Shown piece by piece: positions 6,516-45,504 of a stretch of DNA of 64,000 nt. The DNA comes from an uncultured Acidobacteriota bacterium. GTDB taxonomy: Bacteria > Acidobacteriota > Terriglobia > Terriglobales > Acidobacteriaceae. Under the pieces are notes generated by a model. The model did no database searches. It was not told the origin of the DNA and saw only the letters and a program-made list of their open reading frames with translations. The stretch is from the NCBI GenBank assembly GCA_963787685.1, contig CAWBED010000018.1, forward strand, positions 33,556 to 97,555, written 5' to 3'. The translations under genes were made by a program, and so were the position numbers. Numbering within the stretch: the stretch's first letter is position 1; the number at the start of each line of letters is the position of its first letter.

Positions 6516-6947
6516 CTATCTGCGCCGGATAGCCGTCTTCCGCGCGCGGGCTCCATATGCGGCGCCGGGACCGGTTCCCTTCGGAGGCTTGCGCACTCCG
6601 TCGAGCAATTCCTTCAAAACGGCGGCATTGTTGTGGGTTTCGTTCTTCGAGGCGAAAAGGAGGGTGAGCCGTTTCTTCTTACGCGCCAGTTCGTAGAGCT
6701 GCCGCAACGCATCTTCGTATTCAGGCTGCGCGAGCTCCTTCAGATATTTGCTGCGGAAGGTCTGCCAATGATCCAAGTGCTCGTGATACCAGCGACGGAG
6801 TTCATTGGAAGGAGCCAGATCCCGGAGCCATTGATCGACAGCGGCGCGCTCCTTGGAGAGTCCGCGAGGCCATAGGCGGTCGACAAGAATTCTTGCCCCG
6901 TCCGTCCGTGCGGGCGGTTCATAGACGCGTTTGATGGCGACGGTCAT
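6516..6947 (-). CDS. DUF488 (YeaO-like) family protein
   Basis: MTVAIKRVYEPPARTDGARILVDRLWPRGLSKERAAVDQWLRDLAPSNELRRWY...LTLLFASKNETHNNA. ATG at 6947 chosen. Confidence 0.8.
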   Translation of the reverse strand: MTVAIKRVYEPPARTDGARILVDRLWPRGLSKERAAVDQWLRDLAPSNELRRWYHEHLDHWQTFRSKYLKELAQPEYEDALRQLYELARKKKRLTLLFASKNETHNNAAVLKELLDGVRKPPKGTGPGAAYGARARKTAIRRR

Positions 6948-7021
6948 GGGGGAGCGTGCGCTTTGCTCTATCATTGTAAAGCGGCGCGCAGAGCCGCGCA
7001 TCCTTGAGAGGCAAGGACTCA

Positions 7022-7432
7022 ATGCAATCGAAAGAAAGCAAGTGGCCCAGGCAGCTGAATACGATAAACGGTGCCGGGATTGTTCTAATTGCGCTGGTGG
7101 CGCTGGTCACACTGGCCGCAACGTCTGCGTGCGACGTCGAGCGTCGGAAGTCGGATGCGGAACTCGGGCTGAATCCGCAGCAATCAGCCGGCAGGAAAAT
7201 TTACGATGCCGAATGCGACCGCTGCCACGAACCGTATTCTTCACGCGGCAAGAAGGGTCCGAGTCTTAAAGGCGTGTTCCAGCACAAATATCTATCGCTC
7301 AGCGGACTGCCGGCCAACGACGAGCGTGTGACCGATATCGTCCGGCTCGGGCGCAACGAAATGCCGGGGTATAGCCAGAAGCTTAGCTCTCAGGATATTG
7401 AAGATTTGCTGGCTTACCTCCATACGTTATAA
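7022..7432 (+). CDS. Class I c-type cytochrome, probable lipoprotein
   Basis: Single CxxCH haem motif (ECDRCHE), a downstream Met region (GRNEMPGY), and an N-terminal hydrophobic segment ending LAATSAC (lipobox-like). Confidence 0.8.
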   Translation: MQSKESKWPRQLNTINGAGIVLIALVALVTLAATSACDVERRKSDAELGLNPQQSAGRKIYDAECDRCHEPYSSRGKKGPSLKGVFQHKYLSLSGLPANDERVTDIVRLGRNEMPGYSQKLSSQDIEDLLAYLHTL

Positions 7433-25874: not shown

Positions 25875-26978
25875 CTACAACCAGTCGCCCCTCATCTGAC
25901 GAAATCGCAGCCGCAGATTTTCCATGTCCTTGCGGATCTGCTCCCGCTGTTTTTCCGACTGATGCAGGAATTCCTTCTGCTCGCGGCGAAATTCTTCGCG
26001 AAGTTCAGCAGCCGCCTTGCGGGAGTTTTCGGCGGCTAATTCCATTTGTGGCCGCAGTTGCGCCAGTTCACCACCCAGCTTACTCAATTCCAGCGCGGAC
26101 TCGGCACTGATGGCCGGCTCAACGCCGAAGCTTTCCTCCTCCAGCAGATCGCCAGATTCCTTGCGCGCCGGCAGCGGCAGCGTCAGAGTTTGTTCCTTCT
26201 TCTCCCGCATTACGCCAACGCTGACTGAGTTGCCGCTGCGCGCGCGCACTGCGTGGGAAAAGTCGCTGGTATCGTGCACCGGCTGGTCGTTGATCTTGAC
26301 GATGACATCTCCGGCCCGGAAGCCTGCCTTCTCGGCACGGCTGCCTTTGTCGACCGCGCGAATGAGCACTCCGTTGCCATTCTTGACACCGAAAAATTCA
26401 CCGAGCTGTGGAGTGATGTTCTCAACCATGAGCCCGCTGCGCGCCGACTGCGTGACCACCACCATGTTGATGGAGGGCATGTCGATGTCTGGCATGTGAA
26501 TTTCCGGGATCTGCATGTGGAAGTCTCCGGGATTGGGCCCGACGAACGAAAATTGCTTGCGCTTATCCGCGAGCTGAGCCTTGACGGTAACGGGTTGGCC
26601 ATCGCGGCTCAGCCCGAACGAAACGATGCGGCCCGGAGGCGTCTCGTGGATCAAGCGCTCCAGCTGCGCTTTGCTTTCCACTGGCGTTCCATTCATCGTG
26701 AGAATGACGTCATGCTCCTTGATGCCCGCTTTTCCGGCTGGGGCATCCTGGTCCACCATCGTCACCTCAACGCCCTTTTCGTCTTTGAGTTTCAAGGCGC
26801 TGAGGCGCTCGGCGGTGATGTCGGCGATATCGACGCCCAGATAGGAAGTAGTCCCACCGTCTTCGCTGGAGAAGACCCACGGCTGCCCTGGCCCATTCGC
26901 CGACCAGTTCTGCGCCGCGTAGGATGAACATGGCAGCAACGGCAACAACGCGAAGATGGTCCAAACATGTTTGCGCAT
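25875..26978 (-). CDS. Secreted double-PDZ-domain protein with a C-terminal coiled coil
   Basis: Signal peptide. Two PDZ-like blocks (GVEVTMVDQDAPAGKAGIKEHDVILTMNG and GVLIRAVDKGSRAEKAGFRAGDVIVKIND). No protease domain. Confidence 0.8.
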   Translation of the reverse strand: MRKHVWTIFALLPLLPCSSYAAQNWSANGPGQPWVFSSEDGGTTSYLGVDIADITAERLSALKLKDEKGVEVTMVDQDAPAGKAGIKEHDVILTMNGTPVESKAQLERLIHETPPGRIVSFGLSRDGQPVTVKAQLADKRKQFSFVGPNPGDFHMQIPEIHMPDIDMPSINMVVVTQSARSGLMVENITPQLGEFFGVKNGNGVLIRAVDKGSRAEKAGFRAGDVIVKINDQPVHDTSDFSHAVRARSGNSVSVGVMREKKEQTLTLPLPARKESGDLLEEESFGVEPAISAESALELSKLGGELAQLRPQMELAAENSRKAAAELREEFRREQKEFLHQSEKQREQIRKDMENLRLRFRQMRGDWL

Positions 26979-26995
26979 TGTCAGTCCCTCATTTT

Positions 26996-27075
26996 GAGTG
27001 ACTAGTGGTTAGTGATCAGTGGCTAGGGGCTCAACTGTCCTTAGCTATCCACTGACCACTATCCACTGATCACTT
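26996..27075. repeat. Intergenic element of two complementary tandem-heptamer blocks (PDZ gene / DUF4097 gene)
   Basis: Left block GTGACTAGTGGTTAGTGATCAGTGGCTAG. The right block reverse-complemented is GTGATCAGTGGATAGTGGTCAGTGGATAGCT. Confidence 0.7.
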
Positions 27076-27084
27076 CTTCTTTTC

Positions 27085-28290
27085 TTACCGATTTGCTTTC
27101 CGAATGCAGATGTCGCCGCTCGACGTGTGCACCTTCACCGTCGGGCCTCCGCCATTCAGCGCGCCATCGGCAGTCAGCGTCTTGCTCCACTGATCGCCCT
27201 CGCTGCTGACGTGGATCTCCGGGAAATCCGACGTGATGCGATGTCCGCTGCCCATGTCGACGCTGGCACGAACATTAATCGCGACATCGGAGGCGATGTA
27301 TACCGTGATGTCACCCGCGCCCGTCTCGAGATCGGAATCGTGGCGCTCGCTACCCGTATTCACCAACTTCACGGTGATGCCACCCGCTCCGGTCTCTGCG
27401 TGGGCCGACGGCACTCCGTAAAGCTCTATGCCGCCGCCACCGGTCTCAGCGTGAACATGTCCCTTGGCCGAAGTCAGGTGGATCGTTCCGCCTCCGGTTT
27501 CAATTTCCGCAGGACCGCCGAGGTCGCTTAAATCAATGCTGCCTCCGCCTGTTGAAACTTTTATTTTCCCCCCACATTGCCGCACTTCGATGCTGCCGCC
27601 GCCGGTTTCGACGGTAGCCCCTCCCGCGCAGGATTCGATCCGAATACCGCCGCCGCCGGTTTCCGCCGATACCTTTCCGTTCGCGTGCCGGATCGCGATC
27701 GAGCCTCCGCCTGTGTGCAGGCCCATATCCCCACTGACGGTTCCGACATCGATTGATCCGCCGCCGGTCTCGGCGTTCACGCCGCCGCCGATGTCGTCGA
27801 GCTTCATGTTGCCGCCGCCGCTCTCGGCCTCGACTCGGCCGGCGATACCTTCCGTGTCTACGTTGCCGCCTTCGGTCTCGAGTTTCACCAGCGCCATCTC
27901 GCGCGGAACGTTGATGGAAAACTCTCCGGAAAAGTGGCGGGGCTGATGTCCTCCCTGCCAATCGCCGACGATCCAGGCGGTGTCGCCTTTCACGTAAGCG
28001 GTCACTTTGAACTGTTCGAATTGGTGGCGGGCTTCCTGCTCAGAAGAAGTTTTGAAGTTCGTATGAACGACGTAATTGATGCCCTGCTGCTGCCCACCCC
28101 GTACCCGAACGGAGCCCATGTCAACCTTGACCCTTAAGTTCTTGACCGTTGCCAGCGAACCGGTGATCTCCTGTCCCCAGGTTCCACCTTCGCGGGCCAT
28201 GTGTGTTTCCTGCGCCACGGCCAGCGGCGCAAGCAGGGCCAGCACACCGGCCAACCCGACGATTTGTAGCGCTCGTTTCAAAGTATCCAC
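27085..28290 (-). CDS. DUF4097 beta-helix repeat protein (putative adhesin-like)
   Basis: Signal peptide, then at least 10 repeats of the ETGGGSI / ETGGGGI unit. Confidence 0.8.
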   Translation of the reverse strand: MDTLKRALQIVGLAGVLALLAPLAVAQETHMAREGGTWGQEITGSLATVKNLRVKVDMGSVRVRGGQQQGINYVVHTNFKTSSEQEARHQFEQFKVTAYVKGDTAWIVGDWQGGHQPRHFSGEFSINVPREMALVKLETEGGNVDTEGIAGRVEAESGGGNMKLDDIGGGVNAETGGGSIDVGTVSGDMGLHTGGGSIAIRHANGKVSAETGGGGIRIESCAGGATVETGGGSIEVRQCGGKIKVSTGGGSIDLSDLGGPAEIETGGGTIHLTSAKGHVHAETGGGGIELYGVPSAHAETGAGGITVKLVNTGSERHDSDLETGAGDITVYIASDVAINVRASVDMGSGHRITSDFPEIHVSSEGDQWSKTLTADGALNGGGPTVKVHTSSGDICIRKANR

Positions 28291-28338
28291 CTCACTTCTC
28301 GCGATCTGTTCGCGAATGTCCTTGTAGATCTGTCTTGC

Positions 28339-29286
28339 CTAATCAATTTCCGGAAGCTGCGCCAGCATGGTGCGCGCCTGTGACTTGATGTACTGGCTCT
28401 GATCCTTCGCCGCCAGCGCCATCAGCACGCCGCGCACGCTGCCATCGGCTTTGACTGGCTCGATCAACCGCAGTGCTTCAATCCGTACCCCAGAGTTGTC
28501 ATCGTTCACCAGCGATCGCAGCACGGCATCGCGCACGTTCGTATCCGTCTTGACGTAGTTTCCGAGCGCGTCCAGAGATTTCAGCCGAACTCCAGGATTC
28601 GTGTCGTTTTGCAGCGCATAGATCAGGGCATCCCGAACCTGCTGATCGCTGCTGCGTTGCGCCAGCAATCCAACGGAATCCACGCGCACGCCCGAATTGT
28701 TATTGCGGGCTGCGTACAAGAGTAGTTGCTGGATCTGCTGATCGTTCAACGAACCCTGCGCCTGCTGCGTAGAAACCGTGTTGTATTTGATTGTGACTTG
28801 ATCTGTGCCGGCAACGGGAGTAATGGAGTCAACGCCAGCGATAGAGGATTCTGCAGGAGCACTGTTTGGATTGCTGGTGGTTACGGGAATGCCGGCAACG
28901 GTTGTCGGGTGCGATCCGTAAATCTTGTATGTGGTTCCGATGCCTGCCGCGAATCCAAGAATGAGAATGACCGAGGCCAGTGCGGGCGAGAAGCTTACTT
29001 GTCGCAGCCAGTTTGCCGGATCGAATGTCAGCCTGCTCCAGAACGAGCCTTGCTGCGCGGTCTCCAGCCCTTCCTGCAGGCGCATACGCGACGACGCCAG
29101 AAGATTCGGCGTCGGATCTTCCGCGCGATCCTGCGCGAGCAGCGCATGAAACTCTTGCTCCGCCTTCAGTTCGGCTGCGCAGTCCTCGCAGCGGGCCACG
29201 TGCTGCTCCAGTTCATGGCGGGCATCATCGGCCAGTTCGCCATAAACCTGAAGCACGATATTTTCTCGAACCCATTCACATTTCAT
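28339..29286 (-). CDS. Anti-sigma factor (zf-HC2) with TM helix and periplasmic HEAT-like repeats
   Basis: N-terminal H..x3..C..C pattern (HVARCEDC), one TM helix (ALASVILILGFAAGIG), and repeated NSGVR/NPGVR...L units. Confidence 0.8.
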   Translation of the reverse strand: MKCEWVRENIVLQVYGELADDARHELEQHVARCEDCAAELKAEQEFHALLAQDRAEDPTPNLLASSRMRLQEGLETAQQGSFWSRLTFDPANWLRQVSFSPALASVILILGFAAGIGTTYKIYGSHPTTVAGIPVTTSNPNSAPAESSIAGVDSITPVAGTDQVTIKYNTVSTQQAQGSLNDQQIQQLLLYAARNNNSGVRVDSVGLLAQRSSDQQVRDALIYALQNDTNPGVRLKSLDALGNYVKTDTNVRDAVLRSLVNDDNSGVRIEALRLIEPVKADGSVRGVLMALAAKDQSQYIKSQARTMLAQLPEID

Positions 29287-29298
29287 CGTTGCACCTTC

Positions 29299-29383
29299 GA
29301 GCTATGAGCCTTGAGCGATGAGCAGCGAGCAATCCGGGAATCTTCAAGTTGATCGCTCATAACTCACATCTCATAACTCATCG
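29299..29383. repeat. Same architecture (anti-sigma / sigma)
   Basis: Left GAGCTATGAGCCTTGAGCGATGAGCAGCGAGC. Right GATCGCTCATAACTCACATCTCATAACTCATCG. Units are xATGAGC versus GCTCATx, and several pairing registers are possible. Confidence 0.6.
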
Positions 29384-29977
29384 CTATCTCATATCCGCCA
29401 GAGCCCCGCGCAACTTCTGCGTGGCCCGGAAGAGCGTGTTCTTGGCGGTCTCTTCCGTCGTATGCAAAATTTCTCCCACGGTTCGCAACTTCAGTCCGTG
29501 ATAATGCTTCAACTCAAACACCATGCGTTCGCGCGGAGTCAGTTTCTCCAGCGCTCCGGCGATGCGCGATCCCAACTGCCGGCGCATCAAGTCCTTCTCC
29601 GGATTCGCTCCCGCCCGCGCATCGGGCACCTGATCGAGCAGGTCATACTCGCCGCCGTCGGGATCTTTCGCGACCGGCGCGTCTTCCTTGCGCACGGTCT
29701 TCTTGCGCAGATGATCGAGACACAAGTTGGTCACGATCCGGTAAATCCATGTGTAGAAGGAACACTCGAACCGGAAGCTGCCAATATTCTTGTAGGCTTT
29801 GAGGAAAGCGTCCTGATACACGTCCTGGGCGTCGTGTTCAGTTCCGGTGAGATGCAGCGCCAGGCGCAACACGGGCTGGTCGTAGTGGCGCACGAGTTCC
29901 TCGAAGGCGGCGCGGTTTCCCCGCTGCGCTTCGCGGATCAACATCGTGTCATCTATGCGGCGTGCTTGCCCAGCCAT
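29384..29977 (-). CDS. ECF-type RNA polymerase sigma-70 family factor
   Basis: Region 2 (AFEELVRHYDQPVLRLALHLTG...DVYQDAFLKAY) and region 4 (LTPRERMVFELKHYHGLKLRTVGEIL). ATG at 29977 chosen over the longer ORF start at 30133. Confidence 0.9.
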   Translation of the reverse strand: MAGQARRIDDTMLIREAQRGNRAAFEELVRHYDQPVLRLALHLTGTEHDAQDVYQDAFLKAYKNIGSFRFECSFYTWIYRIVTNLCLDHLRKKTVRKEDAPVAKDPDGGEYDLLDQVPDARAGANPEKDLMRRQLGSRIAGALEKLTPRERMVFELKHYHGLKLRTVGEILHTTEETAKNTLFRATQKLRGALADMR

Positions 29978-30398
29978 GCGGCCCCGCGCGGGGTCCTGGT
30001 TCTCTCGAATCTGGTCTTCCCGAGTTCCGTCGTCTCTAACGCCGGAACTGCTGACTCTCTCTGTTACCTCACCCTCTCTCGAGTGGGCCCGTCCGCCAAC
30101 CGCAAAAGGTATTGCCCATACTCCGGCCGGCATTTGTGCTATGTCCTCATACCTGCCCGGCTTTCAAGTCATCCGGGCTTGCACAGGAATAGACGGAGAA
30201 TCAGCGGATCCGTGAGCAGAAATTATAGGCCGTACGGGGATTTTTAGCAGCGTCTAGGTGATTCAGGGGAAAAGATTTAGAGAGAAACAGAACAATGGGG
30301 CACAACCGGGTATCGCAGTTTGGCAAGGCAAGTGCCCTGAATGTGGTGCGTTTTTGGATAGCGGCCCGAGCCAGCGCCCGGGCCGGTATTCGAAAGCC

Positions 30399-30854
30399 TT
30401 ACTCCGCGACCGCTTCCTTCTCGATGACTACCTTCAGATGCGCGGTCACGTCCTTGTGCAGCTTAACCGGGATCGTGAACTCGCCGACGGTCTTCAGAGG
30501 CTCGTGCAACTGGATCTTGCGGCGATCCACGTTGAAGCCCTTCTTGGTCAGTGCGTCGCCCAGATCACTCGAGGTAACCGATCCAAAGAGCTGATCGTTC
30601 TCCCCCGACTTTCGCGTGAACGTCACCGACACGCCCTCGAACTGCTTCGCCAATTCCTCAGCCTGCGTCTTTTCCTTGGCGGAGCGGCGCACGGAGGCGG
30701 CCTTCATCTGGACGATGACAGCCTTGTTGCCTTCGTTGGCCTGGATGGCCAGCTTGCGCGGCAACAGATAGTTCCGTCCGTATCCTTCCGCGACCTTGAC
30801 CACATCGCCGCGGGATCCTAACTTCGCTACGTCTTCTTTCAGAATGACTTCCAT
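30399..30854 (-). CDS. rplI: 50S ribosomal protein L9
   Basis: MEVILKEDVAKLGSRGDVVKVAEGYGRNYLLPRKLA. Confidence 0.95.
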   Translation of the reverse strand: MEVILKEDVAKLGSRGDVVKVAEGYGRNYLLPRKLAIQANEGNKAVIVQMKAASVRRSAKEKTQAEELAKQFEGVSVTFTRKSGENDQLFGSVTSSDLGDALTKKGFNVDRRKIQLHEPLKTVGEFTIPVKLHKDVTAHLKVVIEKEAVAE

Positions 30855-30858
30855 GAAT

Positions 30859-30948
30859 AGCTCCTGGCTTCTAGCCGCTAGCTCCCAGCCAACCAACACG
30901 CTCTGCCTCGTTTTAGCCAGAAGCTAGGAGCTAGGCGCTAGAAGCTGA
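30859..30948. repeat. Same architecture (rplI / rpsR)
   Basis: Left AGCTCCTGGCTTCTAGCCGCTAGCTCCCAGCC. Right TAGCCAGAAGCTAGGAGCTAGGCGCTAGAAGCT. CTTCTAGC pairs with GCTAGAAG and GCTAGCTCC with GGAGCTAGG about one centre. Confidence 0.7.
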
Positions 30949-30951
30949 TTT

Positions 30952-31323
30952 TTAGCTTGCTCGTCCGGCAAATGGCAGCAGTGCGATGTTGCGCGCCTGC
31001 TTGATCGCCGACGACAGCCGGTGTTGGTGCGGGGCGCACACGCCAGTCAAACGGCGCGGCACGATCTTGCCGCTCTCGGCCACGAACTGCCCCAGCAGCC
31101 GGTAATCCTTGTAGTTGATGTCTTCGATCTTCTCGGTGCAGAACTTGCAAACCTTCTTGCGCCGGAAAAATTTCCGACCGCCGCCGCCCTCGCGTGGAGG
31201 TCCGCCGGGACCGCGTCCGCCGCCGCCAAATCGCGGACGATCTCCGCCGGGCCGTGGCCCGTCCGAACGCGGCCTCTCGGCCGGTGCCGCTGCTTGCTGT
31301 GGTGCGCTTGTTTCGTCTGCCAT
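30952..31323 (-). CDS. rpsR: 30S ribosomal protein S18 with a Gly/Pro/Arg-rich N-terminal extension
   Basis: [62 protein letters not shown]. Confidence 0.93.
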
Positions 31324-31357
31324 AACTCTTGCTCTCCTTCAGAAATCTTCAGTAGGA

Positions 31358-31450
31358 CCCCAAAGGGGTCAGGGATCAGGGGTCAGTAAAATCTCGAACC
31401 TGCAACAGGCAGGGCGCTCAGTAACTGGCCCCTAGCCTCTGACCCCTTGG
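31358..31450. repeat. Same architecture (rpsR / rpsF)
   Basis: Left CCAAAGGGGTCAGGGATCAGGGGTCAGT. The right block reverse-complemented is CCAAGGGGTCAGAGGCTAGGGGCCAGT. Confidence 0.7.
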
Positions 31451-31452
31451 TT

Positions 31453-31866
31453 TTACGCCGTCGCTGGAGCTTCCGCCACCGGAGCCGCTGCCGGTTCCGC
31501 CGGCGCTGCTGCCGGCTGCGCGCTTACTTTCTTCTTCGAGTCGCGCAGCTTCTTGATCTTGTCCAGCCGCTTCTGCTCTTCATCCACGCGCACGGTGAGG
31601 AACTTGATCACCGGCTCAGTGACGCGCAGACGGCGCTCCAGTTCGTGCATGACCGGGCCTCCGCCCTCGATGACCATGAGGACGTAGATGCCGTCGTGAA
31701 AACGGCGCACAGTGTAGGCAAGACGCCGCTTGCCCATCTTGTCGACCCGCAGCACCGACCCGCCCGAAGGGGGCACGACCGATTGCAGCGTCGAAATCAG
31801 TTTGTCCAGATCCTCTTCCGTCATATCCGGACGGACGATAAACATCAACTCATATGTACGATTCAT
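31453..31866 (-). CDS. rpsF: 30S ribosomal protein S6
   Basis: MNRTYELMFIVRPDM...KRRLAYTV. Ala/Pro-rich C-terminal tail. Confidence 0.93.
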   Translation of the reverse strand: MNRTYELMFIVRPDMTEEDLDKLISTLQSVVPPSGGSVLRVDKMGKRRLAYTVRRFHDGIYVLMVIEGGGPVMHELERRLRVTEPVIKFLTVRVDEEQKRLDKIKKLRDSKKKVSAQPAAAPAEPAAAPVAEAPATA

Positions 31867-31886
31867 TCGTTTCTCCAAATCCTTAA

Positions 31887-31962
31887 GCCAGTGGCCAGTG
31901 AGTAGTGGCTAGTTCTCAGCAAAACCTCGGCGTCTCCCGAGCGACGACTGAACACTAGTCAC
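31887..31962. repeat. Same architecture, weaker (rpsF / pth)
   Basis: Left GCCAGTGGCCAGTGAGTAGTGGCTAGT. Right ACACTAGTCACTCCTCACTGC. A central small hairpin CTCGG-N6-CCGAG is present. Confidence 0.5.
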
Positions 31963-31965
31963 TCC

Positions 31966-32574
31966 TCACTGCTCTTCTTTCCGGTTATAGCGATTCATCG
32001 CTGCCGCCGGACCCTCTTTCAAAATCATCTTCACCGCGTCCTCGGCGGTGTCGAGAACCCCATCCACGATTGCCAGGTCCGCCTTGCGCATCGGAGCCAG
32101 CAGGTACTCTGCGCCGTCCCCTACTTTCCGTTCCGGCGCAACGCCGATCCGGATTCGCAAGAAATCCTGCGTGCCCAGCGCATCGATGATCGACTCGATG
32201 CCGTTATGCCCCGCCGAACTGCGCCGCGTATGAATCCGCAGCGTGCCCAGCGGAAAGTCCAACTCGTCCTGAATCACAATCAGGTCCGACTCCGGCGTCG
32301 CTTCGTACTCCCGGATCAGTTCCCGCACCGAGACGCCACTCAAATTCATGAACGTCTCCGGCTTGGCCAGCAGTACCATCTGATCGGCGATAACGGTTCG
32401 CGCCGTCTGCGCCCGGCACTGCCGGTTCCTCACTTCCACGCCCAGGTGTTCGGCGATGCGATCAATCGCCAGAAAACCCAGGTTATGCGGCGTGAGCTGA
32501 TATTCGGCTCCGGGATTGCCAAGACCCACAATCAGTTTCACGCAGACTTCGAACCTTTCGCCACGGATTTCCAC
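31966..32574 (-). CDS. pth: Peptidyl-tRNA hydrolase
   Basis: KLIVGLGNPGAEYQLTPHNLGF...GHNGIESII. The true start is probably GTG at 32541. Confidence 0.9.
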   Translation of the reverse strand: MEIRGERFEVCVKLIVGLGNPGAEYQLTPHNLGFLAIDRIAEHLGVEVRNRQCRAQTARTVIADQMVLLAKPETFMNLSGVSVRELIREYEATPESDLIVIQDELDFPLGTLRIHTRRSSAGHNGIESIIDALGTQDFLRIRIGVAPERKVGDGAEYLLAPMRKADLAIVDGVLDTAEDAVKMILKEGPAAAMNRYNRKEEQ

Positions 32575-32582
32575 GAAATCGT

Positions 32583-32637
32583 CACGGATAAAGCGAATCT
32601 TTGTCTCCGATCCGTGTGAATCCGTGCCAATCCGTGG
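32583..32637. repeat. Tandem AATCCGTG octamer array with an upstream complementary CACGGAT (pth / rplY)
   Basis: GATCCGTGTGAATCCGTGCCAATCCGTGGCC at 32605-32637. GTCACGGAT at about 32585. Confidence 0.65.
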
Positions 32638-32643
32638 CCGAGG

Positions 32644-33360
32644 TTATTTCTTCTCTTTCTTCTCTGCCTTCTCCGGAGCAGCCTCGGCACCCTCTTCGTC
32701 CGTCTCCTGTTTGCCCTTCTTGATGACTTCAGGCTCAGCCGGAGTAGCACCCGCTTCCGCCGCCACTGCTTCAGGAGTCGCCACAACCTCTTCCTTCACC
32801 GAGGTCACGTGCGCGACGGGCTGATTCGCATCGCTCAGGAACTTGATCTTCTCCATCTTGGGCAGGTCCGAAACGCGCAGCACCTTGCCGAATGTCAGTT
32901 GGCTGACGTCGGCGTCGATGTGGCTCGGGATGTCGGCCGGCAAGCACTCGATCTCGACTTCACGCAGCATCTGTTCCATAATGCCGCCTTCCTGCTTCAC
33001 GCCCGCCGACTCTCCCACCAGGAAGATGGGGACGCTGACGCGCAGCACTTTGTCGAGCGCAATGCGCTTGAGATCAATGTGCAGCAGACGGCCCTTGATC
33101 GGCTCATACTGCCAGTCGACGATCATGGCCTTCGTCTTTTCGCCGCTCAATGTCAGATCGAAAATCGTGTTGTGTCCGGTCTCCGAGTTCAGAATGCGCG
33201 TCACCACGCGGGGATCGACGCTGATCGAGAGCGAGTCTTTACCCGCTCCATAGACCACGGCCGGAATCTTGCCTTCCTTCCGCACACGCTTGGCATCGTT
33301 CTTGGTGCCGGCGTCTCTCGGTTGCGCTTCCAGTACGTTCGTTTCCAATGCAGTCGCCAT
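32644..33360 (-). CDS. rplY: 50S ribosomal protein L25 / general stress protein Ctc
   Basis: RKEGKIPAVVYGAGKDS...LLHIDLKRI. Acidic and Lys-rich C-terminal tail. Confidence 0.9.
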   Translation of the reverse strand: MATALETNVLEAQPRDAGTKNDAKRVRKEGKIPAVVYGAGKDSLSISVDPRVVTRILNSETGHNTIFDLTLSGEKTKAMIVDWQYEPIKGRLLHIDLKRIALDKVLRVSVPIFLVGESAGVKQEGGIMEQMLREVEIECLPADIPSHIDADVSQLTFGKVLRVSDLPKMEKIKFLSDANQPVAHVTSVKEEVVATPEAVAAEAGATPAEPEVIKKGKQETDEEGAEAAPEKAEKKEKK

Positions 33361-33387
33361 AAATGTCAATTCCTATCTAAGAAATCT

Positions 33388-33457
33388 GCGGTGAGCATCG
33401 AGCGACGAGCGCGGAGCAATCTCGTTTGCTCACGGCTCACCGCTCATGACTCACGGC
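33388..33457. repeat. Same architecture (rplY / prs)
   Basis: Left GCGGTGAGCATCGAGCGACGAGCGCGGAGCAA. The right block reverse-complemented is GCCGTGAGTCATGAGCGGTGAGCCGTGAGCAA. Confidence 0.7.
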
Positions 33458-33458
33458 T

Positions 33459-34514
33459 TCAAATGAACAGCTTACTAACCGAAGTCTCTTCGTGATTGGC
33501 CTGAATGGCCCGGCCAATCAACCCCGCAATCGAGAGGACCGAAATCTTTCCTCCCTTTTCCGTCCTCGCGGCGTCGGCCGCAGGCGTCAGCGGGATCGTG
33601 TTCGTTACCACTACTTCCTTAATCACCGAGTTCCGGATGTTCTCGACCGCCGGACCCGACAGCACCGCGTGCGATGCGCACGCGTAAACATCCACCGCGC
33701 CGTTCTCTTTCAGTGCCGCCGCCGTCTTCACCAGCGTGCCGGCCGTATCGATCAAATCGTCGATGATCAGGCAAGTTCGCCCGTGAACGTCACCGATCAC
33801 GTGCATGATCTCGGCCACATTCATCTCGACGCGCCGCTTGTCGACTATGGCCAGCGCCGCATCCACTTTCTTGGCGAAGAATCTCGCACGCTCCACGCCG
33901 CCCGCATCTGGCGAAACCACCGTCAAGTTCGGCAACTGCAACTTGCGGAAGTGATCCACCAGCACCGGCGACGCGAACAAATGATCCACCGGGATATTGA
34001 AAAATCCCTGCAGCTGCGGCGTATGCAAATCTACAATCAACGCCCTGTGGGCTCCTGCCGTCGTCAGCAAGTCCGCCACCAGCTTTGACGAGATCGGACT
34101 TCGCGGCTTATCTTTTCGATCCTGCCGCGCGTATCCGAAGTACGGAATCACCGCCGTGATGCGCCGTGCCGACGCGCGTTTCAGCGCATCAATCATCAAC
34201 AGCAGTTCCATCAAGTGCTCGTCTACCGGACGGCACGTTGGCTGCATCACGAAGACATCCGCGCCGCGCACGTTCTCCTGGATCTGAACGTAGCACTCAC
34301 CGTCGGCAAAGCGCGTTACTTGCGCCTGTCCGCGCTGCATCCCGAGAAAGTGGCAGACCTCGTCGGCCAGCGGCTCATTTGCCGTGGCGCTGAAGATCTT
34401 GAACTTCTCGTCCACTCGCGGACGCGGCTTCCGCTCGGCCTTGTCGTCGGTCACTGGCGGACTCTTTTTCTCAACCTTGTCACTCTTGTCGGTCGGCGTG
34501 ACTAAAGTAGCCAT
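33459..34514 (-). CDS. prs: Ribose-phosphate pyrophosphokinase
   Basis: IPYFGYARQDRK and DDLIDTAGTL motifs. About 35 aa of Lys-rich N-terminal extension. Confidence 0.93.
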   Translation of the reverse strand: MATLVTPTDKSDKVEKKSPPVTDDKAERKPRPRVDEKFKIFSATANEPLADEVCHFLGMQRGQAQVTRFADGECYVQIQENVRGADVFVMQPTCRPVDEHLMELLLMIDALKRASARRITAVIPYFGYARQDRKDKPRSPISSKLVADLLTTAGAHRALIVDLHTPQLQGFFNIPVDHLFASPVLVDHFRKLQLPNLTVVSPDAGGVERARFFAKKVDAALAIVDKRRVEMNVAEIMHVIGDVHGRTCLIIDDLIDTAGTLVKTAAALKENGAVDVYACASHAVLSGPAVENIRNSVIKEVVVTNTIPLTPAADAARTEKGGKISVLSIAGLIGRAIQANHEETSVSKLFI

Positions 34515-34516
34515 AG

Positions 34517-34601
34517 TGAGTTCTCAGTTCTCGGTTCCCAGTTCTCAGTCTTTGGGCTCGGCCAGTTCAACTGAGAACTGAGAACTGGCAACTGAGAACT
34601 G
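34517..34601. repeat. Same architecture (prs / tRNA-Gln)
   Basis: Left AGTTCTCAGTTCTCGGTTCCCAGTTCTCAGT. Right ACTGAGAACTGAGAACTGGCAACTGAGAACT. Units are AGTTCTC versus GAGAACT. Confidence 0.75.
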
Positions 34602-34607
34602 ATTCTC

Positions 34608-34681
34608 TGGCTGGGCCGCTAGGATTCGAACCTAGACAAAGTGCTCCAAAGGCACTTGACCTACCATTAGTCGACGGCCCA
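34608..34681 (-). tRNA. tRNA-Gln (anticodon TTG), CCA encoded
   Basis: Folded by hand from the reverse complement: acceptor TGGGCCG/CGGCCCA, D stem GACT/GGTC, anticodon stem AGTGC/GCACT with loop CTTTGGA, T arm CTAGG-TTCGAAT-CCTAG, discriminator G, CCA. 74 nt. Confidence 0.9.
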
Positions 34682-34690
34682 ATCACTTAA

Positions 34691-34773
34691 TTGTTGATGG
34701 TTGAAGTTTGGATTGTGAACCCCTTAGGAGTTCGGACCCTATTTTCATTCAACAATCGAAAATCAACAATCAA
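34691..34773. repeat. Same architecture (tRNA-Gln / ispE)
   Basis: Left TTGTTGATGGTTGAAGTTTGGATTGTGAA. Right TTCATTCAACAATCGAAAATCAACAATCAA. Confidence 0.65.
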
Positions 34774-34778
34774 AATTC

Positions 34779-35909
34779 TCAGGAACCCGGCATCAGCCGT
34801 CGCCAGTACACCTGCCGCGTCAGGGTCGAAGTCGCTTGCGCCGACCAACCCTGCTTCCGCAGCCTGCCGACTGCCCGAACCGCCGCTTCGCGAGAAGCGA
34901 ACAGCCCGTAGAGCGTCGACCCAGAACCCGACAACGACGCGTATTTCGCGCCCGCGCGCACCAGCGCACGCTTACCTTCACACAGCTCGGGATATTCAGG
35001 AAAGACGACTTCTTCGAAGTCGTTCTTGATCCCGGCCCGGACAAGCGCGAGAAGTGGATTCTCGGCCCGGCCCCTTCCAAAAGGAGCACCGGAGTGAAGC
35101 TTGCTCAGCCACGCCGACAACTCCCGGCCAAGCTCATTCATTCTATCGGAGGCACCAGATACCGTCAATTTCGGGTTGTCACTCGGAAAGGTTTTTGTGG
35201 GGACAGCCGCCCTCGGCTGTCCAGTCGAGCGAAGCTCGACTCGCTCTCGACTTAAATCCGAAGCGGATGCCTGGGCCGTGGAAGGGCGGCCCTTGAGGGC
35301 CGCGTCAGCATTCCCCAACGAAGAAAGCTTTAGCCCCTGCGTCCCCATTCTCCGATCCCATTCTGCAAACGCTTTCGGCGTCGATACTCCAATTTCCGGA
35401 GTCATCACAACACACGCCATCGCGGGAAAATCCTGCAGCGGATACACCTGCTCTCCGCGCCCCACGCCTAACACTGTCCCGCCGACTAAGAACAGAGGTA
35501 AATCCGATCCGACTTCGGCCGCGATTCGCAATCGTTCCGTCGCTGGAAGAATCTTGCGGAGCGCGCGCTCCAGCCCCAGCAGAGTCGCGACCGCATTCGC
35601 GGAAGCCCCGCCAAGTCCCCCCTGCACGGGCAGTCGCTTCTCAATCTCAATAACGACCCGGCCCTTCGCGCCAAGTGTCGGCATGGCGCGATCAACGATC
35701 CGGTAGCAGGTATTCGACTCATCCCGCGGGACGCGCGGATCCGCGCATCGAATTTCAATCCCGTTCCCGCGCCCGACACTCACGCGGATCACGTCGTGCA
35801 GGCCGATCGTCTGATACACGGTGAGCAGTTCGTGAAATCCATCAGCCCGCGCCGCGCCGATGCGCAGCCCAAGATTGATCTTCGCGAACGATCGCACAGT
35901 CACCGTCAT
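34779..35909 (-). CDS. ispE: 4-diphosphocytidyl-2-C-methyl-D-erythritol kinase with a large internal insertion
   Basis: FAKINLGLRI..R.DGFHEL, KRLPVQGGLGGASANAVA (GHMP motif), and SGSGSTLYGLF near the C-terminus. 376 aa, which is longer than the roughly 290 aa I recall as typical for IspE. Confidence 0.88.
   Translation of the reverse strand: MTVTVRSFAKINLGLRIGAARADGFHELLTVYQTIGLHDVIRVSVGRGNGIEIRCADPRVPRDESNTCYRIVDRAMPTLGAKGRVVIEIEKRLPVQGGLGGASANAVATLLGLERALRKILPATERLRIAAEVGSDLPLFLVGGTVLGVGRGEQVYPLQDFPAMACVVMTPEIGVSTPKAFAEWDRRMGTQGLKLSSLGNADAALKGRPSTAQASASDLSRERVELRSTGQPRAAVPTKTFPSDNPKLTVSGASDRMNELGRELSAWLSKLHSGAPFGRGRAENPLLALVRAGIKNDFEEVVFPEYPELCEGKRALVRAGAKYASLSGSGSTLYGLFASREAAVRAVGRLRKQGWSAQATSTLTRQVYWRRLMPGS
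35197..35241. repeat. Two-hairpin dispersed repeat, copy A (inside the ispE ORF)
   Basis: GTGGGGACAGCCGCCCTCGGCTGTCCAGTCGAGCGAAGCTCGACT. Hairpins are GGACAGCCG-CCCT-CGGCTGTCC and GTCGAGC-GAA-GCTCGAC. Confidence 0.8.
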
Positions 35910-43618: not shown

Positions 43619-44523
43619 TGGCGCCGCCTCGGATCGCGATCCCGATGCCGCACTCCACCGATCGCGAATATGGCGATCGCGCCATCCCGCAGTACGAACG
43701 CGCCGTTGCGATGGCTGGTGGCGAGCCAGTGCGCGTCGCGCTCGATCAGTCCGATGCCGCGGTGATGGAATTGATCGAGCGTTGCGATGGCGTGCTGTTG
43801 CCGGGAAGCAATGCCGACGTCGATCCCGCGCGCTTCCACCAATTTCGGTCGCCGCACACCGCCAAAGCCGATCCACGCCGTGATGAAGTCGACGACCTTT
43901 TGCTCGAAGATGCCTATGTGCGACGCAAACCCGTGCTCGGCATCTGTTACGGTTTGCAGAGCCTGAACGTGTTTCGCAAGGGATCGCTAATCCAGCACAT
44001 TCCGGATTTCTTGCCCGAGGCCACGCGCGCGAAAGTGAATCACGAAGCGGGAAAGAAAGTTGCGGTCGCGCACACAGTGACGATCGAGCCAGCGACGACT
44101 TTGGCGACGATCATATGTGGCGACGGCCGCCTCGGCCATCCAAGCGAAGGCGAAGCCGAGCGCCAGAAATCCGACTTAACTCGGGAAGGCAACGGCCTAG
44201 TCGTGCCGGTGAACTCGTCGCATCACCAATCTGCGGACGCGGTGGGCGAGGGGCTTCGCATCGTGGCCCGCTGCGCCGAAGACGGCATCATCGAAGCGCT
44301 GGAAGGAACTTCGCCCGATCATTTTGTGCTGGCGGTGCAGTGGCATCCGGAAAGATCGGTGGAAGACGACGCCGCATCGCGAGCGATCTTCAGCCGCTCT
44401 GATCGAGCAAGCGCGGACGCGCAGGTAAAGAATAGCCGAGCTTCGCTCGGCGGACAGCCGATGGCGGCTGTCCCCACACACTTCTTTAACTCTTCTATCT
44501 CTTCCTTTTTTGCTTTCGAGTAA
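43618..44523 (+). CDS. Class I glutamine amidotransferase, gamma-glutamyl-GABA hydrolase (PuuD / peptidase C26)-like
   Basis: GVLLPGSNADVDP, LGICYGLQSLNV (nucleophile Cys) and VQWHPE motifs. The last roughly 40 codons look like read-through into a repeat; see findings. Confidence 0.85.
   Translation: MAPPRIAIPMPHSTDREYGDRAIPQYERAVAMAGGEPVRVALDQSDAAVMELIERCDGVLLPGSNADVDPARFHQFRSPHTAKADPRRDEVDDLLLEDAYVRRKPVLGICYGLQSLNVFRKGSLIQHIPDFLPEATRAKVNHEAGKKVAVAHTVTIEPATTLATIICGDGRLGHPSEGEAERQKSDLTREGNGLVVPVNSSHHQSADAVGEGLRIVARCAEDGIIEALEGTSPDHFVLAVQWHPERSVEDDAASRAIFSRSDRASADAQVKNSRASLGGQPMAAVPTHFFNSSISSFFAFE
44434..44477. repeat. Two-hairpin dispersed repeat, copy B (inverted orientation, between the amidotransferase gene and ispF)
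   Basis: The reverse complement reads GTGGGGACAGCCGCCATCGGCTGTCCGCCGAGCGAAGCTCGGCT. Its second hairpin is GCCGAGC-GAA-GCTCGGC. Confidence 0.8.
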
Positions 44524-45001
44524 TTTTCTTCGCCGGTTTCACGGCTTCCAGCAGCACGACAACGTGCGCGATGGCGGCGTTATCCAGATTCAGGCCTTCA
44601 GGAGTCTTGGCCTTCAATCCGACGCAATCTGGGCGGATGTCGAGTAGCCCTGCTACGCGAGCGCGAATCTCCGCGGCATGGGGACCAATTTTCGGCGCGG
44701 CGAGAATCAAGCTGGCATCGATGTTGGCAACGGAGTATCCGCCTTCACGAACGCGCTTCAAAGCCTCGCGCAAGAAGACGGCCGAATCTGCACCCTTCCA
44801 CTTCGGATCAGACGGCGGGAATAAGGCACCGATATCCGGCGCGGCCATCGCTCCAAGGAGCGCGTCAGTGATGGCGTGCAGCAGCACATCGCCATCGGAA
44901 TGCCCCCCGAGCCCTTTGTTGTGGGCAAGCATGATCCCGCCGATTTTCAGCGGAATCCCAGTGTGGAATTCGTGAGAGTCAAAGCCGTAGCCGATTCTCA
45001 T
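44495..45001 (-). CDS. ispF: 2-C-methyl-D-erythritol 2,4-cyclodiphosphate synthase
   Basis: MRIGYGFDSHEF...GHSDGDVLLHAITDALLGA. Basic C-terminal tail KKITRKQKRKR. Confidence 0.93.
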   Translation of the reverse strand: MRIGYGFDSHEFHTGIPLKIGGIMLAHNKGLGGHSDGDVLLHAITDALLGAMAAPDIGALFPPSDPKWKGADSAVFLREALKRVREGGYSVANIDASLILAAPKIGPHAAEIRARVAGLLDIRPDCVGLKAKTPEGLNLDNAAIAHVVVLLEAVKPAKKITRKQKRKR

Positions 45002-45504
45002 ACGGAAACCTTGGCCACGGATTTACACGGATCCACACGGATCATTTTTCGATCGTTGTCGAAAATTAAGCGACGGAACTGTGGGCGCGTACCGAAGTTA
45101 AGCAGCAGGCCGACCTCAATCTTAGTTGCACGCAGATAGTGGAGCAGTTGGGCTTCGTGGGACGAATCAAGGCTTCGCGCGGATTTTAATTCAAGAAGAA
45201 TTTTGTCGTCAACGAGGATGTCGGCGAAGTACTGGCCCACTTTTACACCTCGGAACCATACTGGCACCGAGACTTCACGGACAGCAGTTAATCCGGACTG
45301 CTGCAGGGCTACGAGCGTTGCTTCGGCATAGGTGGACTCGAGAAATCCAAATCCAAGCTCGTTGTAGACGTTGTAAAAGACTGCAATAATGCGATCGGTC
45401 AACTCGGAGTGTTTCAGACTGGTAAGCGGCTTTTCGATCACAAGTGAGTTTACGCTGCTGGAACACGAGTTATCCGCGAGCATCGGTGAAAATCCGTGGC
45501 TCAT
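44998..45504 (-). CDS. GxxExxY family protein (PD-(D/E)XK nuclease-like fold)
   Basis: FYNVYNELGFGFLESTYAEA contains the G-x-x-E-x-x-Y signature. DILVDDKILLELK is the (D/E)xK-like block. There are ATGA overlaps with the ispD stop (45501-45504) and the ispF start (44998-45001). Confidence 0.85.
   Translation of the reverse strand: MSHGFSPMLADNSCSSSVNSLVIEKPLTSLKHSELTDRIIAVFYNVYNELGFGFLESTYAEATLVALQQSGLTAVREVSVPVWFRGVKVGQYFADILVDDKILLELKSARSLDSSHEAQLLHYLRATKIEVGLLLNFGTRPQFRRLIFDNDRKMIRVDPCKSVAKVSV
45014..45043. repeat. CACGGAT octamer array, near-identical inverted copy of 32605-32637. Its first 15 nt form the left inverted repeat of the GxxExxY cassette
   Basis: GCCACGGATTTACACGGATCCACACGGATC. 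Compare the reverse complement of 32605-32637, GGCCACGGATTGGCACGGATTCACACGGATC. Confidence 0.75.
45486..45500. repeat. Right inverted repeat of the GxxExxY cassette
   Basis: GTGAAAATCCGTGGC. Its reverse complement GCCACGGATTTTCAC matches 45014-45028 (GCCACGGATTTACAC) at 14 of 15 positions. Confidence 0.7.

Follow-up and report, generated by a model that had tools for sequence, protein, structure and literature searches.

Imperfect hairpins with tandem-word arms occupy nine of eleven gaps in an acidobacterial housekeeping gene string and retain pairing while their sequence changes

The DNA analysed here, a 64-kb stretch from an uncultured soil Acidobacteriota bacterium (hereafter the window), carries on its minus strand a gene string that runs ispE–tRNA-Gln–prs–rplY–pth–rpsF–rpsR–rplI and continues with sigma–anti-sigma–DUF4097–PDZ. 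Nine of the eleven gaps in this string contain imperfect hairpins. The flanking genes are core housekeeping genes, and their synteny is conserved in 80 genomes. The hairpins are 70–91 nt long, with ΔG values of −24 to −51 kcal/mol, and each arm consists of 3–4 tandem units, repeated with a period of 7 in eight of the nine elements and of 10 in the remaining one (the CACGGAT element). They are placed between a stop codon and the next ribosome-binding site (RBS), with an onset 0–13 nt past the stop. The individual features are as follows.

34687..34773, minus strand: element 1, ispE / tRNA-Gln gap; TTGATTG with CAATCAA, period 7; −24 kcal/mol, z −1.9, the weakest fold of the set
34608..34681, minus strand: tRNA-Gln(UUG), with elements 1 and 2 on its two sides
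34519..34600, minus strand: element 2, tRNA-Gln / prs gap; AGTTCTC with GAGAACT, period 7; −48.3 kcal/mol, z −7.35
33388..33457, minus strand: element 3, prs / rplY gap; (NN)TGAGC with GCTCA(NN), period 7; −42.1 kcal/mol, z −4.66
32560..32638, minus strand: element 4, rplY / pth gap; CACGGAT(N3) with (N3)ATCCGTG, period 10; −45 kcal/mol (full gap), z −4.68
31899..31968, minus strand: element 5, pth / rpsF gap; CAGTG/CACTAG-type units, period 7; −35 kcal/mol, z −2.63
31360..31450, minus strand: element 6, rpsF / rpsR gap; GGGGTCA with TGACCCC, period 7; −51.4 kcal/mol, z −3.0
30859..30946, minus strand: element 7, rpsR / rplI gap; (TT)CTAGC with GCTAG(AA), period 7; −49 kcal/mol, z −4.14
29300..29385, minus strand: element 8, ECF sigma / anti-sigma gap; (NN)TGAG(T/C) with its complement, period 7; −35.9 kcal/mol, z −2.4
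26997..27074, minus strand: element 9, DUF4097 / PDZ gap; CAGTGRN with NYCACTG, period 7; −39.4 kcal/mol, z −5.45

An earlier note on this DNA had described paired tandem blocks in nine of the eleven gaps. All nine were recovered at the named gaps on the minus strand, the unit pairs it had listed were correct, and the sigma/rplI and DUF4097/anti-sigma gaps, both checked, were without a hairpin element, as it had stated. Its further claim that the unit differs at every locus did not hold, since the string contains about seven flavours (TTGATTG, AGTTCTC, NNTGAGC, CAGTGGN, GGGGTCA, CTAGCNN and CACGGATNNN), of which the TGAGC and CAGTG types are each used twice, and families are common to relatives. 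A detector combining autocorrelation with a reverse-complement arm within 100 nt gave 12 matches in the 64-kb window, where about two are expected by chance, and nine of these were the string gaps. Outside the string, the window has roughly 20 more gaps between co-directional genes, all without a hairpin element, and the clustering in the string (9/11 versus 0/~20 gaps) corresponds to a hypergeometric p≈3e-6, a value based on crude gene calls. Folding supported the proposal that the blocks pair into long imperfect hairpins in the sense transcript: against dinucleotide-shuffled controls, z-scores ranged from −1.9 to −7.4, with six elements unmatched in 200 shuffles and the other three equalled by 2, 3 and 6 shuffles.

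The left arm of element 1, whose flavour is present at the ispE / tRNA-Gln gap in 55 relatives, is A+T-rich and nearly invariant, while its right arm contains a promoter-like match. The stem of element 5 starts at the pth stop codon, and the rplI Shine-Dalgarno sequence AGGAG lies inside the stem base of element 7. In the Rfam search, tRNAs alone reached the gathering threshold and no element was assigned to any family; at E≤1, element 2 gave sub-threshold matches to generic miRNA-precursor hairpin models only. It was also observed that the frame after the rplY stop stays open through element 4 into pth, producing a spurious ORF across the gap.

The string was compared with 80 syntenic relatives (Terriglobia, near Ca. 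Sulfotelmatobacter). Across 81 syntenic loci, the detector gave 366 matches versus about 29 expected by chance; 320 fall within the named gaps. A period of 7 was scored in 269 matches and one of 10 in 52. About ten flavours recur over different gaps and genomes, with loops and non-unit details in common, and the same flavours are found in unrelated metagenome contigs, so that the earlier statement that the elements differ at every locus and are therefore not copies of one REP or MITE is not supported. Close relatives, with proteins 94–100% identical, can carry different flavours in the same gap: element 5 is swapped for a CACGGAT-type element in L001 and L003, and element 6 for a CAGTGG-type element in L001. 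Such replacements comprise the entire gap from stop codon to RBS, and in metagenome contigs both flanks match and the gap does not. Comparison of close relatives revealed no consistent target-site duplication at the element borders and resolved no empty site; no transposase was seen, and no movement was observed. Occupancy is variable. A tandem-unit hairpin is present at the rpsR/rplI gap in 57 of 74 relatives, and a significant hairpin of some kind at rpsR/rplI in 68/74 and at pth/rpsF in 66/79. The prs/rplY, rpsF/rpsR and duf4097/pdz gaps are short or unstructured in 36/77, 26/76 and 21/38 relatives, respectively, and the ECF sigma / anti-sigma gap contains a GC-rich REP-like double hairpin instead in 21 relatives.

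When the orthologous gaps were examined for covariation, complementarity was found to be kept while the unit changes. Across 42 tRNA-Gln/prs gaps aligned without fitting, pairing reached 92% of cells versus 79% in shuffles, double-change cells numbered 111 versus 41, and slid controls gave 20–44% pairing. The covariation score was 0.55 versus 0.28 in shuffles (0/500). Right arms fitted the left arm of their own element much more closely than one exchanged between genomes; in one example, the mismatches per 7 nt were 0.83 versus 2.66, and 0/500 permutations were as good. In addition, the sense RNA folds better in 230 elements and the antisense in 88 (p=8e-19), with 1217 sense versus 767 antisense G·U pairs. 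This strand bias is specific to the stems, because the unpaired parts are A-rich and not T-rich. RNA-derived (metatranscriptome) contigs cross elements 2 (34485–34628, 0 mismatches), 3 (33110–33473), 4 and 9 (26951–27137, 0 mismatches).

A gene-bearing copy of one flavour lies elsewhere in the window and is the sole long-range inverted array pair found there:

45013..45500, minus strand: cargo-bearing CACGGAT copy; arms at 45469–45500 (left) and 45013–45045 (right) around a GxxExxY / PDDEXK_3 gene

This cassette occupies exactly the interval from the ispD stop to the ispF start, with an ATGA overlap at either end. In a Pfam scan of four window ORFs, the enclosed gene matched PF13366 (E=1e-36; TIGR04256) with IspD/YgbB matches on the flanks, identifying it as PDDEXK_3 and not a RAYT. 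The GxxExxY ORF reads through both cassette arms. The arrangement ispD–GxxExxY–ispF is found in many relatives (168-aa ORF, 67–84% identity) and, judged from sequence, looks vertically inherited. Element 4 is a gene-less copy of the CACGGAT family, which occurs in three different gaps among relatives and on more than 120 metagenome contigs, and at three metagenome loci a GxxExxY ORF begins in a CACGGAT array. The arm–gene–arm cassette, with inverted tandem-word arms around a PF13366 / TIGR04256 gene, was recovered in the window and in L149, L150, L155, L203 and L204, for the CACGGAT flavour only. L203 has a cargo-deleted copy next to a full one, and L204, an AT-rich locus from another lineage, has a gene-less hairpin together with two GxxExxY genes, each bracketed by a decamer array of the same type. 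The nine elements of the string are gene-less, a PDDEXK_3 homologue was found in the string in 0 of 81 loci, and flavours other than CACGGAT yielded no cargo gene.

REP, BIME and REPIN elements are dispersed intergenic palindromes, often located in operons and transcribed into stem-loops, and are linked to RAYT transposases. The elements described here are likewise palindromic and intergenic, with a family consensus over gaps and genomes for several flavours. NTS repeats accompany the Ssn nuclease, a small dedicated gene situated between its own repeats (PMC11893778), and the CACGGAT cassette resembles both systems, in which a small gene, coding for a nuclease or a transposase, has its own repeats on either side. 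Unlike their single palindromic units, the arms here are arrays of tandem words, and the enclosed gene, a candidate nuclease, has a PD-(D/E)XK fold (GxxExxY) rather than the HUH Y1 or GIY-YIG type. Integron attC sites were considered and rejected, as the R''/R' cores (RYYYAAC … GTTRRRY) are absent from the sequences and the flanks are housekeeping genes in conserved synteny.

The architecture was not recognised in the earlier note as a described class; however, tandem heptamers or octamers whose arrays stand as inverted pairs have been recorded piecemeal in Xanthomonas, in Geobacter metallireducens and in the trnL intron of Nostoc. In Xanthomonas campestris and X. axonopodis, GGGAATC heptamers form inverted array pairs (Rehm et al., 2015; PMC4692102) that are, as here, convergent on opposite strands, intergenic and stem-loop-capable, and whose length and sequence differ among close relatives while the single or paired type is kept. 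The word of that system is single and G-rich and was examined for its ability to form G-quadruplexes, whereas at least ten words, none of them G4-prone, occur here; the present elements also differ in being clustered in an operon, in showing covariation and sense-strand bias, and in having one flavour tied to a gene cassette. The paired ‘global regulator binding sites’ of classes 2 and 3 in G. metallireducens (Aklujkar et al., 2009; PMC2700814) are paired runs of 3–5 tandem words, 7–9 nt in length, that lie on opposite strands with variable spacing, also inside operons (proB/proA), and the words TCTCCGTS(Y) and MTYCTGA are similar to the present ATCCGTG and TTCTCAG. The sites were read as IHF/HU-type DNA sites and listed in supplements only, without RNA-level or comparative analysis. 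According to PMC4476775 and the work cited there, the P6b stem-loop in the tRNA-Leu(UAA) intron of Nostoc is a hairpin of degenerate heptanucleotide repeats, in which two classes (TDNGATT, NNTGAGT) interchange at one site with the structure kept; these words are very similar to the TTGATTG and NNTGAGC flavours. P6b is a single locus in a cyanobacterial group I intron, unlike the series of intercistronic gaps found here. Furthermore, heptanucleotide simple-sequence repeats such as the cyanobacterial STRR and the Beggiatoaceae TAACTGA are described, in MacGregor (2015; PMC4679880) and in Mrazek (2007) as cited there, as intergenic period-7 arrays that are enriched within ribosomal-protein operons and immediately ahead of start codons, with polymerase slippage as their proposed origin. 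Head-to-tail 7-nt arrays in non-coding DNA, the LSSR / STRR criterion, were found in 8/9 window elements and in 269/366 matches in relatives. Those repeats are mostly direct arrays without predicted structure, whereas complementary pairs that fold are found here. None of the window units is identical to the described families CCCCAGT, TTGGTCA, CAACAGT, TAACTGA and GGGAATC. GAACTGA is one base off TAACTGA, a resemblance only.

Taken jointly, the data are best read, at a probability of about 55%, as REP/MITE-like fold-back repeats with tandem-word arms in many flavours, transcribed as intercistronic stem-loops and mainly passengers. The arm word is usually 7 nt long, and 8 or 10 nt in some families. 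Units may be gained and lost in situ through slippage-type events, with concerted change of the two arms, a mechanism suggested by the pairing seen with changing units; whole elements, as the observed replacements indicate, would also be copied or allelically replaced between gaps and strains. The CACGGAT flavour, at least, is probably a gene-less derivative of a GxxExxY (PD-(D/E)XK-fold) cassette, CACGGAT arrays and GxxExxY genes co-occurring in the window and in other lineages, and the GxxExxY protein may have a role in repeat spread. In the operon RNA, each element would form an imperfect stem-loop of 25–35 bp filling the space from stop codon to next RBS, and selection would preserve the fold in the sense direction. 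A stable intercistronic hairpin could stop 3'-exonucleases, serve RNase III as a substrate or keep untranslated RNA structured. As their occupancy is facultative among relatives, the elements are, in our opinion, for the most part passengers that the host tolerates and not regulatory parts that it requires. Nevertheless, within the window the gene-less elements are confined to an 8-kb housekeeping string, which is not obviously expected of a randomly inserting selfish element and thus hints at a function or at a targeting or transcription-linked mechanism.

That clustering in the ribosomal-protein/pth/prs string, with none in the rest of the window, also speaks for a possible, if on balance doubtful, explanation by host selection, according to which a stem-loop of any flavour is needed after each cistron in highly expressed translation operons, to stop 3'-exonucleases once the RNA has been processed, to offer RNase III a site or to shield untranslated RNA from Rho, tandem heptamers being the easiest way to build and repair stems. 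The hairpins retained at rpsR/rplI and pth/rpsF though their type changes, and the stem-specific sense bias, also fit selection at the host level; covariation, G·U bias, the stop-to-RBS position and the enrichment of published TAACTGA repeats within ribosomal-protein operons add to it. It is opposed by the many relatives without structure in the same gaps (prs/rplY, rpsF/rpsR and duf4097/pdz, as counted above) and by the same families in unrelated contexts and around a nuclease-like gene, and its transcript evidence consists of assembled contigs only. A bolder combination would make tandem-word hairpins and small nuclease-fold genes (GxxExxY) one cross-phylum system, in which the protein recognises its own array and propagates or exchanges cassettes while gene-less copies have been taken up by highly expressed operons as modules that stabilise or process the RNA between cistrons; we consider it improbable.

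Two further explanations place the signal in the DNA or at transcript ends. Iterated both-strand sites for a nucleoid-associated protein or global regulator would account for words repeated at a fixed period, the 10-bp period of CACGGAT equalling one helical turn, and Aklujkar et al. read the similar G. metallireducens pairs in this way. This is nonetheless very unlikely for the present elements: at least ten unrelated words would require as many proteins, period 7 is out of phase with the DNA helix, and the G·U strand asymmetry and arm-to-arm covariation belong to a folded single strand, not to duplex sites. Attenuators or terminators that split the genes into independent units would suit stable GC-containing stems right after stop codons, but a U-tract follows 0/9 elements, which argues that they are not terminators; a terminator scan gave no match at these positions, and RNA contigs continue through the elements into the next gene. 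The lineage does use classical terminators, since L001 has a canonical stem with a U-run after rplI, and this explanation can almost be dismissed.

Heptamer repeats in bacteria have, to our knowledge, been on record for 35 years and have stayed unexplained. The locus provides a compact comparative test case, with one operon in 80 genomes in which sequence changes, pairing is conserved and the transcript strand is favoured, and with a gene-bearing relative of one flavour only a few kilobases from the string. On the practical side, such hairpin elements break short-read assemblies and create spurious open frames across gaps. If the REP/MITE-like repeats are selfish, they would represent a repeat class of unusual architecture with a candidate nuclease partner; should they influence the stability or processing of mRNA, the hairpins would constitute a widespread, overlooked layer of operon design in soil Acidobacteria.

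The nine elements of the gene string are fold-back repeats with arms of tandem words, at once REP/MITE-like intergenic palindromes and heptamer repeats. On the minus strand, the string runs ispE, tRNA-Gln(UUG), prs, rplY, pth, rpsF, rpsR, rplI, a promoter-sized gap of 268 nt, ECF sigma, anti-sigma, DUF4097 and PDZ. Elements 1–4 occupy the ispE/tRNA-Gln, tRNA-Gln/prs, prs/rplY and rplY/pth gaps, elements 5–7 those of pth/rpsF, rpsF/rpsR and rpsR/rplI, and elements 8 and 9 those of sigma/anti-sigma and DUF4097/PDZ. RNA folding gave a long imperfect hairpin in every gap for which the earlier note had proposed one (−24, −48.3, −42.1, −45, −35, −51.4, −49, −35.9 and −39.4 kcal/mol for elements 1 to 9, the value for element 4 being that of the complete rplY/pth gap). 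The Z-scores were −1.9 to −7.4 against dinucleotide shuffles, a conservative control where the sequence is self-complementary. Each arm holds 3–4 tandem units, as described, at period 7 in eight of the nine elements and at period 10 in the CACGGAT element, and neither of the two gaps said to be free of elements contains one.

A strict k-mer detector recovered a single element, the units being too degenerate for it, and was replaced by one combining autocorrelation periodicity with a reverse-complement arm within 100 nt. In the 64 kb window this detector returned 12 matches versus about 2 in Markov shuffles, nine of the 12 being exactly the nine gaps, and gene-less elements of the tandem-unit kind are absent from the window's other intergenic regions. 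By crude gene calls, 9 of 11 gaps are occupied in the string versus 0 of about 20 other co-directional gaps (hypergeometric p≈3e-6). Rfam searches gave no family for the elements, and an attC reading was ruled out by sequence and synteny.

Relatives were gathered by a Pth-based scan with one genome per species, which yielded 80 syntenic loci (L001–L080), all Acidobacteriota/Terriglobia MAGs, many of them named Candidatus Sulfotelmatobacter, with the gene order of the string conserved. Across the 81 loci (939 kb), the detector made 366 matches against about 29 expected, at period 7 in 269 and period 10 in 52; 320 lie in the named gaps, and the other 46 are mostly weak period-6 matches within coding sequence. 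The claim that the unit is unique to each locus was refuted by this comparison, as identical flavours (types of unit word) turn up in different gaps of relatives: the CACGGAT type at rplY/pth, pth/rpsF and rpsR/rplI, the NNTGAGC and CAGTGG types in six and three gaps respectively, and the TTGATTG type chiefly upstream of tRNA-Gln but also at rpsR/rplI and DUF4097/PDZ. With the TGAGC and CAGTG types each present twice, the window itself carries about seven flavours. Copies also agree beyond the unit, those of the CACGGAT type in a second unit GATCCGCG and a right arm starting TTTATCCGTG, those of the TTGATTG type in a GC-rich mini-hairpin in the loop; they are therefore homologous copies and not convergent ones. 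For eight flavours (5'-arm words CAGTG, TGAGC, GATTG, CGGAT, CAGTT, GGGTC, GTTTC and TTAGC), the 5' arm has the G/T-rich word and the 3' arm the complement by 193:0 in the window and L001–L080; since an inverted pair is alike on both strands, this polarity is no strand bias.

The supposition that no such class had been described also needs correction, since the paired-array architecture had already been noticed piecemeal. GGGAATC arrays occur as inverted pairs in Xanthomonas (PMC4692102), paired TCTCCGTS(Y) or MTYCTGA arrays in Geobacter metallireducens were interpreted as IHF/HU sites (PMC2700814), and the Nostoc trnL intron has a heptamer-built P6b hairpin with class replacement (PMC4476775). 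TAACTGA direct repeats are enriched inside ribosomal-protein operons (PMC4679880), and a general heptamer-repeat excess in prokaryotes has been put down to polymerase slippage. No account of such repeats in Acidobacteria was found in the literature.

Whole-element replacement separates the window from genomes with 94–100% identical proteins. At pth/rpsF, the CAGTG type is found in the window and L002, the CACGGAT type in L001 and L003; rpsF/rpsR carries GGGGTCA in the window versus CAGTGG in L001, and rpsR/rplI carries TTGATTG in L002 and CACGGAT in L003. In metagenome and metatranscriptome contigs from soils holding the organism, both flanking genes match and the gap differs at several of the nine gaps. 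The replaced stretch reaches from the stop codon to just short of the RBS; no target-site duplications or empty sites were resolved at the replaced gaps. Such replacement may come from recent mobility or from recombination among old polymorphic versions. Relatives carry an element in only part of the gaps, and at prs/rplY, rpsF/rpsR and DUF4097/PDZ many of them have a short or unstructured spacer.

Occupancy of four gaps in the syntenic loci
rpsR/rplI: tandem-unit hairpin in 57 of 74; another significant hairpin in 11
pth/rpsF: tandem-unit hairpin in 44 of 79; another significant hairpin in 22
rplY/pth: tandem-unit hairpin in 10 of 79; GC-rich REP-like double hairpin in 32
sigma/anti-sigma: tandem-unit hairpin in 18 of 58; REP-like hairpin in 21

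A REP-like repeat of two GC-rich hairpins (GCCGAGCTTCGCTCGGC … GGACAGCCGAGGGCGGCTGTCCCCACA) lies in the window inside the ispE ORF (35197–35241) and downstream of ispF (44434–44477), and in relatives a like repeat stands in for the tandem-unit hairpin at rplY/pth (32 genomes) and sigma/anti-sigma (21).

While the word changes, pairing is kept. In every gap, the right-arm unit fits its own left arm far better than arms swapped between genomes (0.83 versus 2.66 mismatches per 7 nt for ispE–prs, 0.88 versus 2.15 for rpsR/rplI), and 0 of 500 arm permutations did as well in four of seven gaps. At tRNA-Gln/prs, the words are graded, from CAGTTCT through CAGCTNT, TAGCTCT and TGGCTCT to TGAGC, with flanks in common. 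In some genomes this gap has no element and carries the conserved 5' leader GAACGGTAAGAACTGAAGGCCAGGAGCCC, of which the window's element retains recognisable traces in its loop; the sequences suggest that this element may have grown in place from a small CAGTT/AACTG hairpin. In a MAFFT alignment of 42 tRNA-Gln/prs gaps, fitted to no structure, RNAalifold found a stem of 14 pairs, 11 of them with double changes. Paired cells made up 92.2% versus 78.6% in shuffles, double-change cells numbered 111 versus 41, and the covariation score was 0.554 versus 0.278 (0 of 500 shuffles), all numbers that relatedness inflates. Sliding the partner by 1–3 columns lowered pairing to 20–44%.

Some copies of the CACGGAT family carry a gene. 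The AATCCGTG array near 45 kb belongs to a gene-bearing unit of this type, which is the window's only long-range inverted array pair and has IspD and YgbB/IspF as neighbours:

45469–45500, minus strand: CACGGAT-type left arm, directly past the ispD stop
45013–45045, minus strand: complementary right arm, between the cassette gene and the ispF start
44998–45504, minus strand: GxxExxY/PDDEXK_3 ORF, which fills the interval between the ispD stop and the ispF start precisely and overlaps each of these genes by ATGA

The gene matches PF13366 PDDEXK_3 (E=1e-36) and TIGR04256 'GxxExxY protein', on which almost no literature was found, its function being listed as unknown; Ssn/NTS is a precedent for a small nuclease that has dispersed repeats of its own on either side (PMC11893778). 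Both arms are translated in frame as the protein's termini (N-terminal MSHGFS…, C-terminal …IRVDPCKSVAKVSV). Relatives keep the ORF at 168 aa and 67–84% identity, and for this reason the cassette looks old and vertically inherited here; the conserved ends, MSHGFSRIFTDQ… and …IRENPCESVAK, are merely translated arrays. An IspF look-up revealed no empty ispD–ispF site, the cassette being present on both contigs found. In one relative, a full copy stands beside one that has lost its cargo and consists of the arms and a remnant of the C-terminal coding sequence, and a clearly different, AT-rich lineage has a hairpin without a gene as well as two GxxExxY genes, each lying between decamer arrays of this kind. 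Furthermore, a metagenome scan for three CACGGAT units at period 10 found at least 120 contigs; among the 90 matches in 80 retained loci, 26 had a complementary array within 130 nt, and three contained the start of a GxxExxY ORF. Together, these cases identify the rplY/pth element as a version, lacking the gene, of an arm–gene–arm unit with a wide distribution. No cargo gene was found for other flavours, no PDDEXK_3 homologue within the string in any of the 81 loci, and no GxxExxY relatives in a scan of viral contigs.

In many relatives, rpsF stands between two same-flavour hairpins, at pth/rpsF and rpsF/rpsR (about 6570–7240; L004, L005, L019, L023, L028, L048, L060, L069, L070 and others), the inner arms forming a long-range inverted repeat round the gene with the geometry of the GxxExxY cassette.

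Further observations concern the flanks. In the stretch 32538–32646 (minus strand), the listed pth start, GTG 32574, falls inside the hairpin, the conserved Pth N-terminus VKLIVGLGNPG begins at a GTG near 32541, and the frame past the rplY stop is open across the whole of element 4 into pth. At ispE/tRNA-Gln (34687–34773), about 60 genomes share an almost unchanged left arm, AATTTTTGATTGTTGATTTTTGATTGTTGATTGACAAT, and the right arm is variable (L001–L080). With a promoter-like TTCACA-18-AACAAT in its right arm (34719–34690), this element may also serve as the promoter of tRNA-Gln or overlap with it. The region's best promoter-like match, TTGACG-17-TAGAAT, is at 35140–35168 (minus), within a lineage-specific insertion of the long ispE ORF. 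Upstream of the ECF sigma gene (30134–30200, minus), the window has a conserved hairpin in the leader, TGTGCAAGCCCGGATGAC…AAAGCCGGGCAGGTA, and CCTATAAT, a TATAAT-like box, both of which most relatives have too.

With respect to RNA behaviour, attenuation is given little weight and a terminator reading was rejected: no U-run follows any of the nine elements, a consensus scan places no terminator there, and RNA-derived contigs cross elements 2, 3, 4 and 9 into neighbouring genes, DNA carry-over in the libraries being possible. These findings, along with the sense-strand stability given below, indicate that the elements lie within transcription units and have the behaviour of structured RNA. After rplI, L001 ends the ribosomal-protein string with a textbook stem-plus-U intrinsic terminator AAAAAAAGCCCCGCAGTTCTTGCGCGGGGCTTTTTTCTC (about 8160–8230), and the window has a GC hairpin without a U-run in the same place. 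The stems begin 0–13 nt past the stop codon, which means that their base has to be opened by a terminating ribosome. In six of eight protein-gene gaps the stem stops just short of the RBS, and in only two (tRNA/prs and rpsR/rplI) does RBS-like sequence lie within it; on this ground, Shine-Dalgarno sequestration and translational coupling were rejected. Stop codons in all three frames, an idea based on periods 7 and 10 being ≡ 1 mod 3, were likewise dismissed as a driver, the excess (68% of elements versus 46% of shuffles, both strands alike) being modest and unconvincing.

DNA-binding arrays, the interpretation given to the Geobacter pairs, also have little probability. When 320 distinct elements were folded both ways, the sense RNA was the more stable of the two in 230 cases and the antisense in 88 (mean sense minus antisense −3.5 kcal/mol; Wilcoxon p=8e-19), with 1217 versus 767 G·U pairs. 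The unpaired parts are A-rich, not T-rich (TA skew −0.22), and a simple coding-strand C-to-T bias therefore fails to explain the G·U excess. Host-selected stabiliser or processing hairpins are a possible but rather unlikely explanation. Altogether, each element becomes an intercistronic stem-loop on transcription, with its pairing constrained in the sense RNA, and the elements are somewhat more probably than otherwise (about 0.55) mainly tolerated, copy-and-slip repeats.
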